Under the pieces are notes generated by a model. The model searched no databases. It was not told where the DNA came from and was given only the letters and a program-made list of their open reading frames with translations. A DNA stretch of 64,000 nucleotides from positions 170 to 64,169 of the forward strand of contig CAMYMF010000010.1 in the NCBI GenBank assembly GCA_947259355.1, given 5' to 3'. Positions 4,237 to 43,383 of the stretch are shown piece by piece. The DNA comes from an uncultured Nitrospirota bacterium. GTDB taxonomy: Bacteria; CG2-30-53-67. How positions within the stretch are numbered: the first letter of the stretch is position 1; the number at the start of each line of letters is the position of its first letter. The translations under genes were made by a program, and so were the position numbers.

Positions 4237-4736
4237 CGATTCATCTCCCGGGAGGACACATGGCATGGGGCATCATTTGATGGACTCGCCAGCTTCTTTC
4301 CAAGCATCGAAGAGTGTCGCCCGCCTTTGCCCCCCGCTCCCGTAAAACGCCATCGGTATGATGGGGCACGTCTTCTCCCTCTGCCCAACGGAGCTGCAGT
4401 CATCAATGGCGATATGTGATGTCCCCCGACGCCCTTTCCCCCTTCACGGGAACAGGGTTCGGTGATGGGACGAAGAATACGACCATCTGGATGTTCGGTG
4501 CAGTATCTTCCGACGAGGTCTCCCCCTCTCCCTTCACCTAACCACTGGTTTGCTGTTCTGTCAAGATGGGGCGGCAGAAAGATACCGGATGCCACGCGGG
4601 CGTCCGTGCCCTGTCTGTGTCATTTGCCTCAGACCTTGGCAAGAAAAACGACGGTTTTTTGTCACCCAAAATGTTACGCACGGTTTTCGTTCTCCCATGT
4701 CTTGACGCCCTGCAAACTTGGGTGTATCTTCCGGCC

Positions 4737-6215: not shown

Positions 6216-6707
6216 CAAATAGGAATCATTCCGATTATCGAAGAATATAAGAACCTTCGGGATATTGAACAGACGCTCATCTCGAGTTTACGTGATAAGG
6301 GATAGAGGCCCACCCCTAAACGACTTGAAATTATTCGACTTTTGGCACGGGATATCTCACATCCCGGCGTAAGGGATATTTTACGGAACGTCAGAAAGAT
6401 CGTTCCACGGATAAGCATGTCAACGGTATCTTACACCCTTGACATGATGCAGAGAGAAGGCTTGATATAAGGGCTTGAGTTCTACCACACGGACAAGCGT
6501 TAGGATATGAACCTATCGCATCATATCGACCTCGTCTGCACAACATGCGGGAAGATAACGGATTTTACGAGTGATTTGCCTTCATTATCAAAGGCTGTGG
6601 AAAAGGAAACAGGTATTAAGCTGTCAAGTATGCGGTTTGAATATTACGCCATCTGCAGGACTCGCGCGCGTGTGAAAAAGAAGAGGGGCCCTAAATTCTT
6701 TTGTTAG
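6216..6707 (+). pseudogene. Fur/PerR-family regulator pseudogene (three in-frame stops)
   Basis: A single frame reads ..LRDKG*RPTPKRLEIIRLLA..HPGVRDILRNVRK.VPRISMSTVSYTLDMMQREGLI*GLEF..DKR*DMNLSHHIDLVCTTCGKITDF.. with stops at 6303, 6468 and 6501. No clear start codon, and the C-terminal CxxC is lost. Confidence 0.75.
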
Positions 6708-6911: not shown

Positions 6912-9119
<2,208 letters not shown>

Positions 9120-17716: not shown

Positions 17717-17961
17717 ACAAAAAAGGGCCGAACCCACCCAAGGTTTTCTCCTTCGGCAGCTCGGCCGTCTTTCCCCCACAAAGACCCGACGCTTTCTGTC
17801 AGCCTGTCACCAGGCGTTTGGCTTTATCGGGAAGTCTGGTTTTCGAGGATTCTATTGTCGATTGAAGATATCCCCTCCCCTCATTTTTTCTACTCAGGCA
17901 CCACTATAGGGACCTGTCAAGTGAACGCGGAGAAAAAATTTGAAATTTATCTGGACATGAA
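17717..17961 (-). promoter_or_regulatory. structured 5' leader with intrinsic terminator (copy A of a paralogous leader pair)
   Basis: Aligns with 36247-36492 over its whole length; the 48-nt core (17749-17796) is 42/48 identical. On the RNA strand, the hairpin GGCCGAGCUGCCGAAGGAGAAAACCUUGGGUGGGUUCGGCC is followed by U6. A conserved TTGACAG block lies at the 5' end. Confidence 0.55.
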
Positions 17962-19075: not shown

Positions 19076-19735
19076 TTAACGAGACCGCTTGACAGGCTCT
19101 CCGTCGCCGCCAAAAACGGCGTCGGCCACTTCTTTGTTCGTTTGGAGTCCAATATCGAGCATGGAGCAGTACATCCTGTTGGCGATGGCTTCGCTGTCGA
19201 CTTTCATCGCACTGGTGAGCGTACAATTGATGATGAATGTTTCTTCGGCGTAGATTTCCAGAATCTCGTTATGCAGGTTGAGGAACCGCTCCTTGTTGTT
19301 GCCGAAGCTTTTCCGGACCAGATCGTGATAGTCCGCTCCGTCTTTGGTTGCCAGCAGTTGTTGAAAAAGGCCTACCTGGTGGCGGGCTCTCTTGCGCCGA
19401 AGGGGCGTGAGCTTCTCATAATCGAAGCAGATCTTGACGGGGAGGAATTTGATGTCTCTCAGCAGGAATTGATCGATATCCCTACCGACGGCGATCAGCT
19501 CATCCAGATCGTCCTCTGTGATCTGTCGGCCGGCCTGATGAAGGGTGACCGCCAGGTCGAGATAATCCCGGTGATACTCCAGTTCCCGTTTCACCCGGTG
19601 CATGAGAAACTTCTTGAACACCGGGAATTGAATCACCGAGACTTTCCGACCGCATTCATCGAGGCATCGTTTGAAAAGGGTATGCAGAAACCAGTCGGCG
19701 AACTGCATGATCTCCTTTTCCGTGTCAATGCTCAT
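19076..19735 (-). CDS. hypothetical protein (219 aa)
   Basis: Long ORF with normal codon texture; start chosen at MSIDTEKE. No recognisable domain. Confidence 0.55.
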   Translation of the reverse strand: MSIDTEKEIMQFADWFLHTLFKRCLDECGRKVSVIQFPVFKKFLMHRVKRELEYHRDYLDLAVTLHQAGRQITEDDLDELIAVGRDIDQFLLRDIKFLPVKICFDYEKLTPLRRKRARHQVGLFQQLLATKDGADYHDLVRKSFGNNKERFLNLHNEILEIYAEETFIINCTLTSAMKVDSEAIANRMYCSMLDIGLQTNKEVADAVFGGDGEPVKRSR

Positions 19736-31785: not shown

Positions 31786-32366
31786 CTTCTCCTTTTCTGG
31801 ACTGCATGCCCCCCTGAAAAAACAAGGGGCTTGAACATGTTAGGGATGCTGCACTGACGGAGAGAAGTGTAGCACCAGATTTGAAAGTCGGCAATTCGGT
31901 CACTCGAAAAATGTGAAAAATTATCGAGGGATACGCTTCGGAGATTAAAGATGGCGTCCCCGGAGAGACTCAGCGGAGACCCATTTCTGGATCGTCCGAG
32001 GATCGCATCAACCACATTTTCTAGAACTATTTATCTGTATTTATATCAAAATTACTCGCTTTCAGATTTTTGAAGCGATATTATCTCTTAAAAGAGTTCA
32101 TTTTTGCGCAATAACGGTGATCCTACATCGGAATAGCGTTGTCTATCCTTGCCGCCGACACACGCCCACTGCGCGCAGCATCTTTCTGTACTGGCGGATC
32201 ATGCCTTTCAGTAATTTATTCACTCAGCAAGAGAGCTCGGCTCGTTTTTCCATGATTCCTTATTTCTTAGACGCTTAGCCAATCCAGAGATGTGGAGGTT
32301 GAATTCGATCAGTCCTGGAGAATGAGCCAAGGCTCCCTTTTTGTCGCGCGGAGGCGATACCTTCTC

Positions 32367-32396
32367 TTGACAGCACGTTCGCTCATAAGGTATCTT
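32367..32396 (+). promoter_or_regulatory. sigma-70-like promoter (TTGACA-N18-TATCTT)
   Basis: TTGACA at 32367-32372 and TATCTT at 32391-32396. Confidence 0.4.
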
Positions 32397-32518: not shown

Positions 32519-33979
32519 ATGAGAGCGAGAGTAATTGCTGCCACCGTCTTGGCGTCAGGTCTGTTCTTTGGCGGACCTGCACCGGGCATCGCGCAAAGTC
32601 AGGTTACACCGGCATCCTTGCAGGGTGCTGATGCATTGCCCAACGCCCAACCGGGTGAGTGCTACTCTAAAGTGATGCTCCCGGCGGAATATAAGACGGA
32701 AACCGAACAGGTGGTGATACAGGACGCCTATGAAAAAATCGAAATCGTAGCGGCCGAATACCAGACCGTCACGGAGAAGGTCGTTGTCAAGGAGCCAGCG
32801 GCGGAACTCGTCCCCGTGGAGCCTGTGTTTGAAACAGTGAAGGAACGGGTGGAAACCCAACTGGCCCGTCGCATCTGGCGCGTCGGCAAGAGTGCCAAAT
32901 CTAAAGCGGCTGATCCCAGCCTGGTTTCCGGCGCGCAGGCCCTGGGGCTGCCCGTGTCTGCCAAGGTGGGGCAGTGCTACGCCGAGTACTTTCAGGCAGC
33001 ACAATATAAGACCGAGACGGAGAATGTGATCGTGCGCGAGGCCTATCAGGGGGTCGAGGCCGTTCCGCCCAAGTATGAGATGGTTGACGAAAAAGTGATT
33101 ATCAGTGACGCTTCATTCAAGTTGGTGGAGGTGCCACCCGTTTACGAAACGGTTACAGAGAAAGTCCTGGAGGCGCCGGCATACACCACATGGAAAACGG
33201 GACGCGGCCCCGTGGAACGGATCGATCACAGCACCGGCGAAATTATGTGCCTGGTGGAAGTTCCGGCCAAATACAAAACGGTGGAAAAGCGCGTCCTGAA
33301 GTCTCCCGCAAAGACTCAGAAGATCGAAATCCCCGCCAAGTACAAGATGCAGAAGGTGCGCAAGCTGGTGGCGCCGGCGGAGTTCCGCAACGTCGATGTG
33401 CCTGCAGAGCACAAAACCGTCACCAAGAGGACTCTGGTCTCCGAAGCCAAGACCGTCTGGCAGCCAATCGGGCAGGAGGGTCCGGGAAAATACACCGGCC
33501 GGCGGCTCTGTCTGCACGAAATACCGGCAAAGCATGAGATCATCACCAAGCAGGTTCTCAAAGCGCCGGCCACAACCCGGAAGGTTGAAATCCCTGCAGA
33601 GCATAAGACACAACAGGTGCGCAAACTCGTCTCCCCGGCCCAGGAGAAGCGCGTCCAGGTGCCTGCGAAAGTGGCCACATTCACCCGGCGCGTCAAGGTG
33701 GCCGATGCCCGGCTCGAATGGCGCCAAGTCCTGTGTGAAACCAACATGAGCAAGGAACTCAATACCCAGATTCAGCGTGCCCTCGCCAGCCGCGGTTTCA
33801 ATCCCGGCGAGATAGATGGTGTGATCGGCCGACAGACCATGGTCGCCGTCGGTGAGTTTCAGAAGAAAGAGGGGCTACCCCAGGGTGGGTTAACCATGCG
33901 CACCTTGGCTGAGCTGGGTATCAATGTTGCGTCAGCACGTTCCACATCGAGCATCAAAGCGAAGCAGCAACAGCGCTAG
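32519..33979 (+). CDS. secreted repeat protein with C-terminal peptidoglycan-binding (PG_binding_1-like) domain
   Basis: Signal peptide, internal repeats built on (I/V)PA(K/E)(Y/H)K-T..K.VL..PA, and a C-terminal ..LASRGFNPGEIDGVIGRQTMVAVGEFQKKEGLPQGG... Confidence 0.8.
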   Translation: MRARVIAATVLASGLFFGGPAPGIAQSQVTPASLQGADALPNAQPGECYSKVMLPAEYKTETEQVVIQDAYEKIEIVAAEYQTVTEKVVVKEPAAELVPVEPVFETVKERVETQLARRIWRVGKSAKSKAADPSLVSGAQALGLPVSAKVGQCYAEYFQAAQYKTETENVIVREAYQGVEAVPPKYEMVDEKVIISDASFKLVEVPPVYETVTEKVLEAPAYTTWKTGRGPVERIDHSTGEIMCLVEVPAKYKTVEKRVLKSPAKTQKIEIPAKYKMQKVRKLVAPAEFRNVDVPAEHKTVTKRTLVSEAKTVWQPIGQEGPGKYTGRRLCLHEIPAKHEIITKQVLKAPATTRKVEIPAEHKTQQVRKLVSPAQEKRVQVPAKVATFTRRVKVADARLEWRQVLCETNMSKELNTQIQRALASRGFNPGEIDGVIGRQTMVAVGEFQKKEGLPQGGLTMRTLAELGINVASARSTSSIKAKQQQR

Positions 33980-34189: not shown

Positions 34190-35677
34190 CTAGTCACGAT
34201 GCCGCACGAGGGTGAGTCTGTCCTGAATGCCGAAGGGATCCTTGATTTCCACCTCCCGTTGGAACGTCAGTTTCTTCTTGCCTCGGTCATCGAGGTATTT
34301 GTCCAGCTCCAGATTAACCATGAGGGGCACCGGCTCACCGGCTTGAGTCAGGGCTTGCCGCAACAACCCTTCGGCCTTCGTGGCAAAGGCAATGGCGTCG
34401 CCCAGAATGCGCATGACTTCTGTCGGATTGTGAAAACCGACCGAGTTTTCAGCACCGACGTAGAGGGAGCGGTAGAAAGCCTCTTCATAGTAATCCTTGG
34501 CTTGACCATAAAGTTCTTCGTTCAAGAGCTTTCCTGATCCCTGGGCGGCATGGACTTTCTCAATCAGTTTGGCCGCCGTGGCCGTGGCGTATCCTGCCCG
34601 CAGCATGAGCGAAACCGTCCGGTCTTGAATGGTGGTGACCTGCCCCTTCAGCCATTCGGCGCTCTCCGTATGACACTGCATGCATGCCTTCATGTCATTC
34701 TTCAGTGGGCTCGTCACCCGATGATCGGACACCTTGTGAACACCGACCTTGGTATACGGCATGTGACAGTCTGCGCAGGACGCGCCCGCCTTCCAGTGGA
34801 CGCTCTCCTTGGAGAACAATTCGTACTCGGGATGCCTCATGAAGGCCAGTTTGTACCCGGTGACCTTTTGTTTCCACTCCGCCACGGAGGGGTCGTTTCG
34901 GATCTGCCGAATGATGTTCTCAACGGAGATGTTCTCCCATTGGCTTCCGTGCCACGGAAAGTAAATGCCAACAGATTTCATCTCCTTGCTCTTTTTGATG
35001 TTGTACGTCACATGGCACTGGGCGCAAACGATGCTGCGCATCTCCTGGTTGGAGAGCGTCTCGGGATCTTTGCCCATGGTCTCGAGTGCCTTCACCAGCG
35101 TGAAGCCTCTGGAGATCTTCAAGGACATGTCCTCGTGGTGATGACAGTCCACGCACGCCACCCCCAGTTCCTGATGCTCTTTGGGGATGGCCGCATGCAC
35201 TTCTTTCCAGGGCTTGCTGTAGTAGTCGATCCCCATCTCCTTCTCGAATTTCGGCGCGTAGGGCGTTTTGCACGTCAGACAGACACCGCCGGCCCCGACT
35301 CTGGAGGGGTCGATCTCCAGTTGATCGATGAGCATGTAGGCATGCCCCCTCGGTTCGTTATACTCGACGCCAAAGCCCCATCCGCTGAAGAGCAGCGCCA
35401 TGAAGGGGAACTCCGACAACTTGTCATAGGTGATCCTGTCGGCATCGAAGCCTCGTTTGTATTTGCTTTTTCCTGCAGGCGTGGGCTCCTTGGTCCTCTC
35501 CCACAATTCGTACTCCACAGGATAGGCCTTGCCCCAGGCCGCCGGATCCATTTCGCCCGCAGCGATTTTCACCGGCCGGACCTGCTCACTCTTGGGCGGC
35601 TGGCAGCCAGAAAGCCCAAGGGCTGCCAGGCCCATCACCGTGCACCATACCCAAGTGCATCGACCTGTCCATTTCAT
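34190..35677 (-). CDS. nrfA: ammonia-forming cytochrome c nitrite reductase, pentahaem subunit
   Basis: CLTCK (CxxCK haem 1) plus four CxxCH motifs (CVDCH, CAQCH, CADCH, CMQCH). Lipoprotein-type signal LSGC. GGAGG SD before the ATG at 35677. Confidence 0.93.
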   Translation of the reverse strand: MKWTGRCTWVWCTVMGLAALGLSGCQPPKSEQVRPVKIAAGEMDPAAWGKAYPVEYELWERTKEPTPAGKSKYKRGFDADRITYDKLSEFPFMALLFSGWGFGVEYNEPRGHAYMLIDQLEIDPSRVGAGGVCLTCKTPYAPKFEKEMGIDYYSKPWKEVHAAIPKEHQELGVACVDCHHHEDMSLKISRGFTLVKALETMGKDPETLSNQEMRSIVCAQCHVTYNIKKSKEMKSVGIYFPWHGSQWENISVENIIRQIRNDPSVAEWKQKVTGYKLAFMRHPEYELFSKESVHWKAGASCADCHMPYTKVGVHKVSDHRVTSPLKNDMKACMQCHTESAEWLKGQVTTIQDRTVSLMLRAGYATATAAKLIEKVHAAQGSGKLLNEELYGQAKDYYEEAFYRSLYVGAENSVGFHNPTEVMRILGDAIAFATKAEGLLRQALTQAGEPVPLMVNLELDKYLDDRGKKKLTFQREVEIKDPFGIQDRLTLVRHRD

Positions 35678-35693: not shown

Positions 35694-36155
35694 TCACAGG
35701 GTTTCGATGGCACCACTGCGCTGATGGGATACCCGTCTGTGACAGCTCCAGCATTTCCTTTCGGTGTCCATCAGCGACACGGTGGTGGCGTGGCATCGGA
35801 CACAGTTTCTCTGCAGGACCTTTTCCCCGTGAGCAGTCAATTCAATCCGCTCGGGAACCATGCCGGAGTAAAAGAAGAACACATCCTTCAACCCGTCAAT
35901 TGCCTTCCACACATAGTGGGCGCTCACCGTCTCGTTGGGGAGATGGCAGTCGACACACTGTTTCCGCCGGTGCGCTCCGGTATGGCTCCAGGCTTCGTAC
36001 TCGGCCTCCATAACATGGCAGCTGACACAAAAGTCCGCCTGATCCGATTTCGCGAGCAGCTTGGGTGGACCGAGTAGGAAGAACAGGGAAACAACCAGCA
36101 GAGCGACCGTGATACCAAGGTAAAGACCTGCCTTTTTCCGTCCCGACTTGCCCAT
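35694..36155 (-). CDS. nrfH: NrfH, NapC/NirT-family tetrahaem membrane cytochrome
   Basis: N-terminal TM helix and four CxxCH motifs (CVSCH, CVDCH, CVRCH, CWSCH), immediately upstream of nrfA. Start could also be 36197. Confidence 0.9.
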   Translation of the reverse strand: MGKSGRKKAGLYLGITVALLVVSLFFLLGPPKLLAKSDQADFCVSCHVMEAEYEAWSHTGAHRRKQCVDCHLPNETVSAHYVWKAIDGLKDVFFFYSGMVPERIELTAHGEKVLQRNCVRCHATTVSLMDTERKCWSCHRRVSHQRSGAIETL

Positions 36156-36246: not shown

Positions 36247-36492
36247 AACAAAAATGCCGGACGCCGAAGTTTCATCCTTCGGCAGCCCGGCCATCTTTCC
36301 CCCACCAAGACCCGTGACTTTCCGCCCCCCCCTCACGAAGGGTTGAGCTTTCTCGGGAAGCCCCTTGTCCTTAATGGTTTTCCTTTGTTGAGTATAGCGG
36401 CAGCGGCCCCTCCCTCAGCTTCTATGATTCACCAGGTTGAGCATCTGTCAAGTCGGTGAGAAAAGAATTTGCTGTCCGTCGAAACGCATGAA
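36247..36492 (-). promoter_or_regulatory. structured 5' leader with intrinsic terminator (copy B of the paralogous leader pair)
   Basis: Aligns with 17717-17961; the 48-nt core is at 36275-36322. On the RNA strand, the hairpin GCCGGGCUGCCGAAGGAUGAAACUUCGGCGUCCGGC is followed by AUUUUUGUU, 92 nt before the nrfH ATG. Confidence 0.55.
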
Positions 36493-43024: not shown

Positions 43025-43383
43025 TCGTCTCCCACCCACCCGAAGACTCTCCGCAGTCGCCCACAGGTGACACGACCGTCAGGAGATCGGCCTTTTCCAT
43101 AGAGGCCCTCCGCTACCCCTTGCCGGCCCTCGGCGCGCAGCCAATCCGAGCTGGTTTCCATCCGGAAACGGCCCTTTTCCCGATGAGCTGCGTCCTCCGC
43201 GGGCTTACTTCCTCGACGTACAATTAGTACGCGTCTAGTATGCTTCGGAGTAGACCCTTGTGCGGCCTTGCTCATCGAAAAAATTGCTCATGTCCAAATT
43301 GGAAACTAGTTCGTGTCCGTTCTAATTTCCGGATGGACACTGGCTGGTTCTGTAGTCGAATAGCGCTGTCAAGGACGACGCAC

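Follow-up and report, generated by a model that had tools for sequence, protein, structure and literature searches.

A predicted class I cyclic di-GMP riboswitch upstream of nrfHA in an uncultured Nitrospirota bacterium

Control of nrfHA-dependent nitrite ammonification is usually attributed to protein regulators responsive to oxygen, nitrate/nitrite and nitric oxide. The leader that precedes this operon in an uncultured Nitrospirota bacterium (contig CAMYMF010000010.1 of assembly GCA_947259355.1) raises the question of whether an RNA element also takes part and, if so, which signal it reads. The leader lies on the minus strand of a 64-kb stretch of DNA, referred to here as the window, and was read from 36520 to 36150. 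The original prediction had described it as a structured 5' leader (copy B) in which an internal terminator implied conditional read-through, and as the paralog of a second leader (copy A, 17717-17961) found upstream of an amino-acid binding-protein gene. Our analysis supports this architecture and points to a different signal from the nitrogen metabolite that had been suggested: the leader can be taken with good confidence to be a class I cyclic di-guanosine monophosphate (c-di-GMP), or GEMM-I, riboswitch through which transcription of nrfHA is switched on, a reading carried by family membership, the binding-site nucleotides, the mutual exclusion of the aptamer and terminator folds, and the conservation of the element among relatives.

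Identification of the element begins with its aptamer. When the whole window was scanned against Rfam with curated thresholds, just two matches were returned, one in each leader, both belonging to GEMM-I (the c-di-GMP-I clan) and both full length; no glutamine or other nitrogen-related riboswitch family was matched. With both leaders being GEMM-I aptamers, it is very probable that they respond to one shared signal, as had been proposed. In the cmscan alignment the equivalents of G20, A47 and C92 (numbering of the Vibrio cholerae Vc2 riboswitch) fall at 36348, 36321 and 36282 of copy B, and G, A and C occupy the same three positions in copy A; A47 is a ligand-contacting nucleotide of the Vc2 structure. 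In this class the two guanines of c-di-GMP are recognized by G20 and C92 (PMC6140456). Because the canonical equivalents of G20, A47 and C92 are present, copy B is predicted to be a canonical c-di-GMP-I aptamer with c-di-GMP as its ligand.

The earlier proposal of glutamine, 2-oxoglutarate or nitrite arose because the signal was inferred from the downstream genes, and gene context, in that both of these genes are nitrogen-related, is the one point in favor of an attenuator common to nrfHA and the uptake gene that senses a nitrogen-status metabolite (those three compounds or ammonium). Against this stand the fold and conserved junction nucleotides of both leaders, which are those of GEMM-I and include the canonical c-di-GMP-contacting positions, the lack of any nitrogen-related family among the Rfam matches, and the finding that the approximately 110 listed aptamers of the same subtype, described below, precede unrelated genes, none of them nrfHA. 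Sensing of a nitrogen metabolite is accordingly regarded as extremely improbable.

The c-di-GMP aptamer is followed by an intrinsic terminator with which it competes for sequence. The terminator hairpin alone has a folding energy of -27.7 kcal/mol, and its 5' arm (36291-36276) is composed of the P1b 3' strand, the C92 junction and the P1 3' strand of the aptamer. The aptamer fold and the terminator fold overlap at 36295-36277 and cannot coexist, because 12 nucleotides (nt) are paired in both. In the full-length minimum-energy fold (-53.6 kcal/mol) the terminator is formed; with the aptamer pairs enforced, the energy is -19.4 kcal/mol. Free-energy folding alone misses the native aptamer, as expected for a fold stabilized by ligand and tertiary contacts, and the Rfam pairs were therefore imposed; a simple terminator scanner failed to report the hairpin, presumably owing to its bulged stem. 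Since the folds exclude each other, termination is the default and a ligand-held aptamer would block it, a transcriptional ON switch is predicted, with the direction of switching in vivo inferred from this anatomy.

In the mechanism proposed, transcription would start near 36417 and the aptamer would be made first. Were c-di-GMP bound as RNA polymerase arrives at the U-run, the aptamer 3' strand would be sequestered, no terminator would form, and transcription would read through into nrfH and then nrfA. In ligand-free RNA, the 16 nt that make up the terminator 5' arm, among them the C92 equivalent, which would otherwise pair with one guanine of the ligand, would fold into the far more stable terminator hairpin, and the RNA would end at approximately 36247. 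The terminated transcript had been expected to measure about 190 nt; the start suggested by the promoter-like site gives a length of about 170 nt instead. Copy A would act likewise on the amino-acid binding-protein gene and, because it would work in the same way, the two genes would form one c-di-GMP regulon.

Comparison with riboswitches of established behavior bears on the predicted direction of control. In the pilM riboswitch of Geobacter metallireducens, aptamer and terminator have been shown experimentally to be exclusive, with the terminator capturing the ligand-pairing cytosine (PMC9262584). The nrfHA leader has in common with this 3',3'-cyclic GMP-AMP (cGAMP) riboswitch, a member of the GEMM-Ib subclass, an ON platform in which the terminator 5' arm is the aptamer 3' strand and is followed by a U-run, as well as target genes of a respiratory or cytochrome type, but differs in carrying G rather than A at position 20, from which c-di-GMP and not cGAMP is predicted as the ligand. 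When the cognate cyclase is removed from G. sulfurreducens, every transcript that follows a riboswitch of this kind is reduced, and a mutation that destabilizes the terminator makes the signal unnecessary (PMC6456294). The Cd1 riboswitch of Clostridioides difficile, in contrast, is an OFF switch in which aptamer and terminator coexist and the ligand promotes termination via loss of an antiterminator (PMC9262584). Cd1 and the nrfHA leader are alike in aptamer class, in predicted ligand and in acting on transcription, but in the nrfHA leader only one of the two folds can form at a time, and the opposite sign is predicted.

The features on which these statements rest are collected in Table 1. The 48-nt core from 36322 to 36275 matches the letters reported in the original prediction exactly, and the sequence blocks, hairpin and U-run were all found where it had placed them, as was the nrfH ATG (at 36155, 92 nt beyond the end of the U-run), with Pfam matches to Cytochrom_NNT and Cytochrom_C552 confirming the identity of the two downstream genes. 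The element had been delimited as 36247-36492; the conserved region extends further upstream, to 36519.

Table 1. Positions, in the window, of the nrfHA leader, its paralog and associated genes
Feature	Position	Strand	Basis or remark
Distal block GACTGTCGTGGTTTTGTAACAA	36519-36498	minus	about 47 nt upstream of the -35 box
Promoter-like site: TTGACA (-35) 36451-36446, 16-nt spacer, AATCAT (-10) 36429-36424	36452-36424	minus	consensus scan
CTTGACAG block	36452-36445	minus	read in sequence
Purine-rich block GAGGGAGGGG	36416-36407	minus	predicted transcript 5' end
CTTCCCGAGAAAGC	starts 36360	minus	read in sequence
Copy B aptamer	36357-36277 (81 nt)	minus	RF03167 (c-di-GMP-I-GGC), 60.1 bits, E=1.1e-11, full-length model match
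P1	36357/36355-36354 with 36281-36280/36277	minus	Rfam pairs mapped to window
P1a hairpin, GUGA tetraloop	36347-36322	minus	Rfam pairs mapped to window
P1b hairpin	36319-36284	minus	Rfam pairs mapped to window
Intrinsic terminator (hairpin plus U-run)	36291-36247	minus	folding
Terminator hairpin GCCGGGCUGCCGAAGGAUGAAACUUCGGCGUCCGGC	36291-36256	minus	read in sequence
U-run AUUUUUGUU	36255-36247	minus	read in sequence
nrfH, NapC/NirT-type tetraheme quinol dehydrogenase	36155-35694	minus	Pfam Cytochrom_NNT, E=3.1e-15; first gene after leader
nrfA, pentaheme cytochrome c552 nitrite reductase	35677-34190	minus	Pfam Cytochrom_C552, E=6e-151
CZB-GGDEF gene, DgcZ-like predicted diguanylate cyclase	41740-40721	minus	Pfam GGDEF, E=4e-39; CZB, E=4e-8
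Copy A cassette: distal block, CTTGACAG (17921-17914), aptamer, terminator	17997-17720	minus	
Copy A aptamer	17832-17752	minus	RF01051 (c-di-GMP-I), 49.1 bits, E=1.4e-6
Branched-chain amino-acid-type binding-protein gene	17501-16215	minus	downstream of copy A; Peripla_BP_6-type domains

Evidence for the fold was also obtained from sequence comparison. In an alignment of 30 sequences, comprising copies A and B, the ortholog of copy B from a close relative (L081) and 27 non-redundant metagenomic relatives, RNAalifold recovered both GEMM-I hairpins, with both-sided changes in 10 of the 19 pairs, and between copies A and B alone the P1a stems are separated by compensatory substitutions (CCCUUC/GGGGGG and CGCCUG/CAGGCU). 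A covariance model of the subtype, designated R1, scores copy B at 90.8 bits and copy A at 92.1 bits. Relative to the c-di-GMP-I class (RF01051), as represented by Vc2, several characteristics are conserved: the two-hairpin aptamer, the GNRA tetraloop on the first hairpin, the location in a 5' untranslated region, and the junctions, which consist of an A-rich strand ending in G20, an AAA after P1a containing A47, and C92 before P1. Differences include, firstly, an inverted P1a closing pair, C-G/Y-G instead of G-C/C-G (AAAG-CY...GG-AAAG in place of AAAG-GC...GC-AAAG), the C-G being present in 30 of 30 sequences; secondly, a short second hairpin, P1b, with a G-rich loop, GUGGGGGAAAG, that is peculiar to a small clade; and finally the nrfHA target. 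The clade-specific pattern GTCTTNGTGGGGGAAAGANGGCC had 0 matches in metagenomes, and the G-rich P1b loop is therefore restricted to the few NCBI metagenome-assembled genomes (MAGs) that were reached through proteins.

The distribution of the element was followed in close-relative assemblies (GCA_041577435.1, here L081; GCA_945786985.1, L208; GCA_041577075.1, L209; and GCA_041577835.1) and at 80 nrfA loci drawn from species-representative genomes, at 32-75% protein identity. NrfH of L081, L208 and L209 falls in the same 90%-identity cluster as that of the window (89% for L081). In L081 and L208 the distal block, promoter, near-identical aptamer and terminator are all kept, approximately 100-120 nt before nrfH, as is the design in which the terminator overlaps the aptamer 3' strand, and the spacers that flank the aptamer, as well as the one that follows the terminator, have diverged. 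Beyond these relatives, no GEMM-I element was found at three NrfH loci of 71-77% identity, at any of the 80 nrfA loci with R1, or at the 36 closest of them with the Rfam scan. A genuine, conserved linkage between nrfHA and the riboswitch thus exists, restricted to a small clade and decayed in one member, L209.

Several observations weigh against reading the leader as a functional c-di-GMP switch, and those that concern ligand specificity are considered first. The top Rfam score of copy B falls not on the canonical model but on that of a variant, c-di-GMP-I-GGC (60.1 bits, against gathering scores of 59 for RF03167 and 35 for RF01051), and among families below threshold RF03167 likewise ranks first for L081 and L208, so that membership of this variant class, with a different ligand, has to be considered. 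The name of the variant presumably denotes the bases at positions 20, 47 and 92, and the variant is not known to have an established ligand. After the P1a helix the two consensus sequences differ at the position of A47, GACGCGAAg in RF03167 and GACGCAAAg in RF01051, and at this position copy B, copy A, L081 and L208 all carry A, not the variant-defining G. The label is discounted because of this base. Moreover, L081 and L208 score under the RF03167 gathering score (57.5 and 58.7 bits) and above that of RF01051 (47.7 and 47.6 bits), and for copy B clan competition hid one further clan match, with a lower score, that nevertheless passed the gathering score of its own family, most probably RF01051. 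Copy B probably scores higher on RF03167 because peripheral features are shared and because that model takes in the P1 stem; in our view its GGC label arose because closely similar models compete, and membership of the variant class is very unlikely.

As an observation on annotation, orthologs separated by 1-3 substitutions switch from the c-di-GMP-I-GGC label to plain c-di-GMP-I. Caution is warranted where clan competition in Rfam tags a canonical aptamer as the GGC variant despite the missing defining base.

A second question of specificity is whether the aptamer senses 3',3'-cGAMP, as GEMM-Ib does, or both dinucleotides, through the same read-through mechanism. GEMM-Ib riboswitches use the same overlapping-terminator ON design and in Geobacter lie upstream of cytochrome genes (PMC9262584, PMC6456294), certain naturally occurring GEMM-I RNAs accept c-di-GMP as well as cGAMP (PMC6140456), and the inverted P1a closing pair adjoins position 20 throughout the subtype, where it may bear on specificity. 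Recognition of cGAMP, however, results from a G20A change that marks the GEMM-Ib subclass (PMC6140456), and position 20 is G, not the cGAMP-type adenine, in copy A, copy B, L081 and L208. In addition, the GGDEF protein encoded nearby has Asp, not the Ser of Hypr enzymes, nine residues after the Asn, together with a GGEEF motif. Sensing of cGAMP, alone or alongside c-di-GMP, is for these reasons judged distinctly unlikely.

Further points concern whether c-di-GMP switching takes place at all. The -10 element of copy A is weak. In L209, the promoter, the 3' half of P1b and a hairpin resembling a terminator survive in the leader (L209:214-299), but the aptamer 5' half is degenerate: four pairs are broken, AAAG has become AGAG, GGAAAG has become CGAGCG, CCGAAGG has become CCGACGG and CUUCGG has become CUGCGG, and the leader scores 49.9 bits on R1, compared with approximately 92, with no Rfam match. 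It looks like a riboswitch in decay, which would make this control dispensable in at least one lineage. Together with the orthologs of the copy A binding-protein gene that lack a riboswitch, and with a conserved distal promoter block suggestive of added protein-based control, the L209 leader lends some weight to the view that the element is a non-switching evolutionary remnant, its terminator always attenuating or leaking and control being exerted by the promoter and upstream block. Copy B, L081 and L208, however, retain all helices and every conserved junction nucleotide despite freely diverged flanking spacers, their scores lie far over threshold, and a constitutive terminator of -27.7 kcal/mol before a respiratory operon would be costly; that the element is a mere remnant is therefore considered highly unlikely.

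Outside the clade, the subtype to which the c-di-GMP aptamer belongs is widespread. The pattern CCGANAAAGCNNAAC-N40-65-GCTGCCGAAG was found in at least 120 contigs (L086-L205) of Joint Genome Institute metagenome data, and about 114 of the 122 matches listed look like real GEMM-I aptamers. Of the 110 listed matches whose contigs reach far enough downstream, 103 have a hairpin with a U-rich tail whose 5' arm is made up of the final 16 nt of the aptamer. The open reading frames (ORFs) downstream of listed matches, as read from the sequences, encode secreted repeat proteins, PEP-CTERM proteins, cytochromes and kinases, a mixture usual for GEMM riboswitches; no NrfH or NrfA was found by tblastn downstream of the approximately 110 aptamers on listed contigs. 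The RNA and its expression platform are therefore common, with the nrfHA target alone unusual.

Two minor observations can be added regarding this subtype. GEMM-I aptamers with the inverted P1a pair (AAAG-CC...GG-AAAG) and a near-fixed 3' strand, GCCGAGCUGCCGAAGG, are abundant in metagenomes (at least 120 contigs); a literature search with 3'-strand sequence strings gave unrelated primer matches only. One contig, L193, carries two near-identical copies of aptamer plus terminator (1877-1958 and 8058-8139), about 6 kb apart and followed by different ORFs, another within-genome duplication of the cassette.

What is new at this locus is the target operon, nrfHA, the RNA class, predicted ligand and switching design having already been well described; the finding adds a target and no mechanism. 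No paper linking a c-di-GMP riboswitch to nrfA or cytochrome c nitrite reductase was found in the searchable literature, and in the genome-report texts consulted that name GEMM, riboswitch and nrfA, the terms occur in unrelated passages. If the switch is confirmed, the fate of nitrite in this lineage would depend on the state of a second messenger that usually tracks surface-attached or biofilm life. This dependence would bear on the regulation, in sediments, of whether nitrogen is retained as ammonium or lost.

Upstream of the aptamer, the leader is preceded by a promoter-like site of the sigma-70 type that matches 10 of 12 consensus positions, with 0.3 sites expected in shuffles of the region, and that lies 60 nt upstream of the aptamer. 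The CTTGACAG block is kept in copy A and in all four nrfH leaders. Further upstream, a distal block of the form GACTGTYGTG...TTTRTAACAA lies 47-55 nt before the -35 box in both cassettes of the window (at 17997-17976 in copy A), and is also found in the nrfH leaders of L081, L208 and L209; the window contains no further copy. A transcription factor may bind there. A CRP/FNR-type site was considered and rejected, the half-sites TTGT...ACAA being 9 nt apart, against the even spacing that is usual.

The purine-rich block, GAGGGAGGGG, is matched by GAGGGGAGGGG in copy A (17882-17872) and is conserved, in varied form, in L081, L208 and L209; a conserved pairing partner or reading frame for this block was looked for and not found. 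A small leader peptide, suggested by an AUG in the purine block of copy A, was likewise rejected, copy B and the orthologs being without the AUG and the frames unconserved. As for the CTTGACAG sequence itself, it occurs seven times on the two strands of the window, compared with about two expected for an 8-mer, the other copies being at 4558-4565, 6621-6628 and 43366-43373 on the minus strand and at 19088-19095 and 32366-32373 on the plus strand; one lies approximately 150 nt upstream of a gene starting at 32519. CTTGACAG may simply represent the extended -35 consensus of the organism.

The relationship between the two leaders, first noted in the original prediction, was borne out by an alignment that runs from the upstream block through the -35 box and aptamer to the terminator, with a mean column identity of 76%, and that ends after the terminator. 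For a pattern common to both copies, 100 shuffles of the window gave an expected count of 0.00 and, given this expectation and the Rfam E-values of 1.1e-11 and 1.4e-6, the similarity is not due to chance. Nor does it belong to some larger duplication with no bearing on regulation, an objection that fails because the shared segment is limited to the regulatory cassette of promoter, leader and terminator, and because the stems differ by compensatory changes. The terminator of copy A is present in its minimum-energy fold.

In two orthologs of the copy A binding-protein gene (82-83% identity; L206:1-2560 and L207:1-720), one of which is from the same MAG as L208, no upstream riboswitch was found, and copy A seems to be specific to the genome of the window. 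These orthologs are followed by permease genes, none of which was seen beside the binding-protein gene of the window.

With respect to the target operon, 516 homologs of NrfH were retrieved, many of them labeled as the small subunit of cytochrome c nitrite reductase. The likely ATG of nrfA, at 35677, is 17 nt past the nrfH stop, a spacing that agrees with the genes called in the related locus L082.

A possible source of the ligand lies nearby. The CZB-GGDEF gene shares its strand with the riboswitch and lies 4.3 kb upstream of it, and its product contains GGEEF, an RxxD I-site, the Asn...Asp pair in NDTYGHQIGD, and the CxxGxW and HxxxH motifs typical of a zinc site. Proteins with the canonical Asp, as opposed to the Ser of cGAMP-making Hypr enzymes, and GGEEF act as diguanylate cyclases (PMC6456294). 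The predicted cyclase gene shows that this organism should be able to make c-di-GMP, and it is possible that its product is the local source of ligand for the switch. In L208, where the CZB-GGDEF gene lies at L208:4005-4997, the order is likewise aroC, CZB-GGDEF, small genes, riboswitch, nrfH, nrfA.

A more elaborate proposal, which we consider unlikely, is that the riboswitch is the output of a linked local module, in which c-di-GMP made by the CZB-GGDEF protein, as a DgcZ-like sensor of zinc or oxidants, turns on nrfHA, and that the cassette was copied to the amino-acid uptake gene. If so, reduction of nitrite to ammonium would be gated by biofilm or surface state, or by a metal or oxidant cue, and not only by the classical oxygen and nitrogen-oxide regulators, and the two genes would together make up a small regulon through which c-di-GMP controls nitrogen acquisition. 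Among named organisms, the closest relatives of the proteins encoded in this region vary: those of NrfA and NrfH are from Nitrospirota/Thermodesulfovibrionales, those of the binding protein from Desulfobacterota-type MAGs, and those of AroC from mixed phyla.

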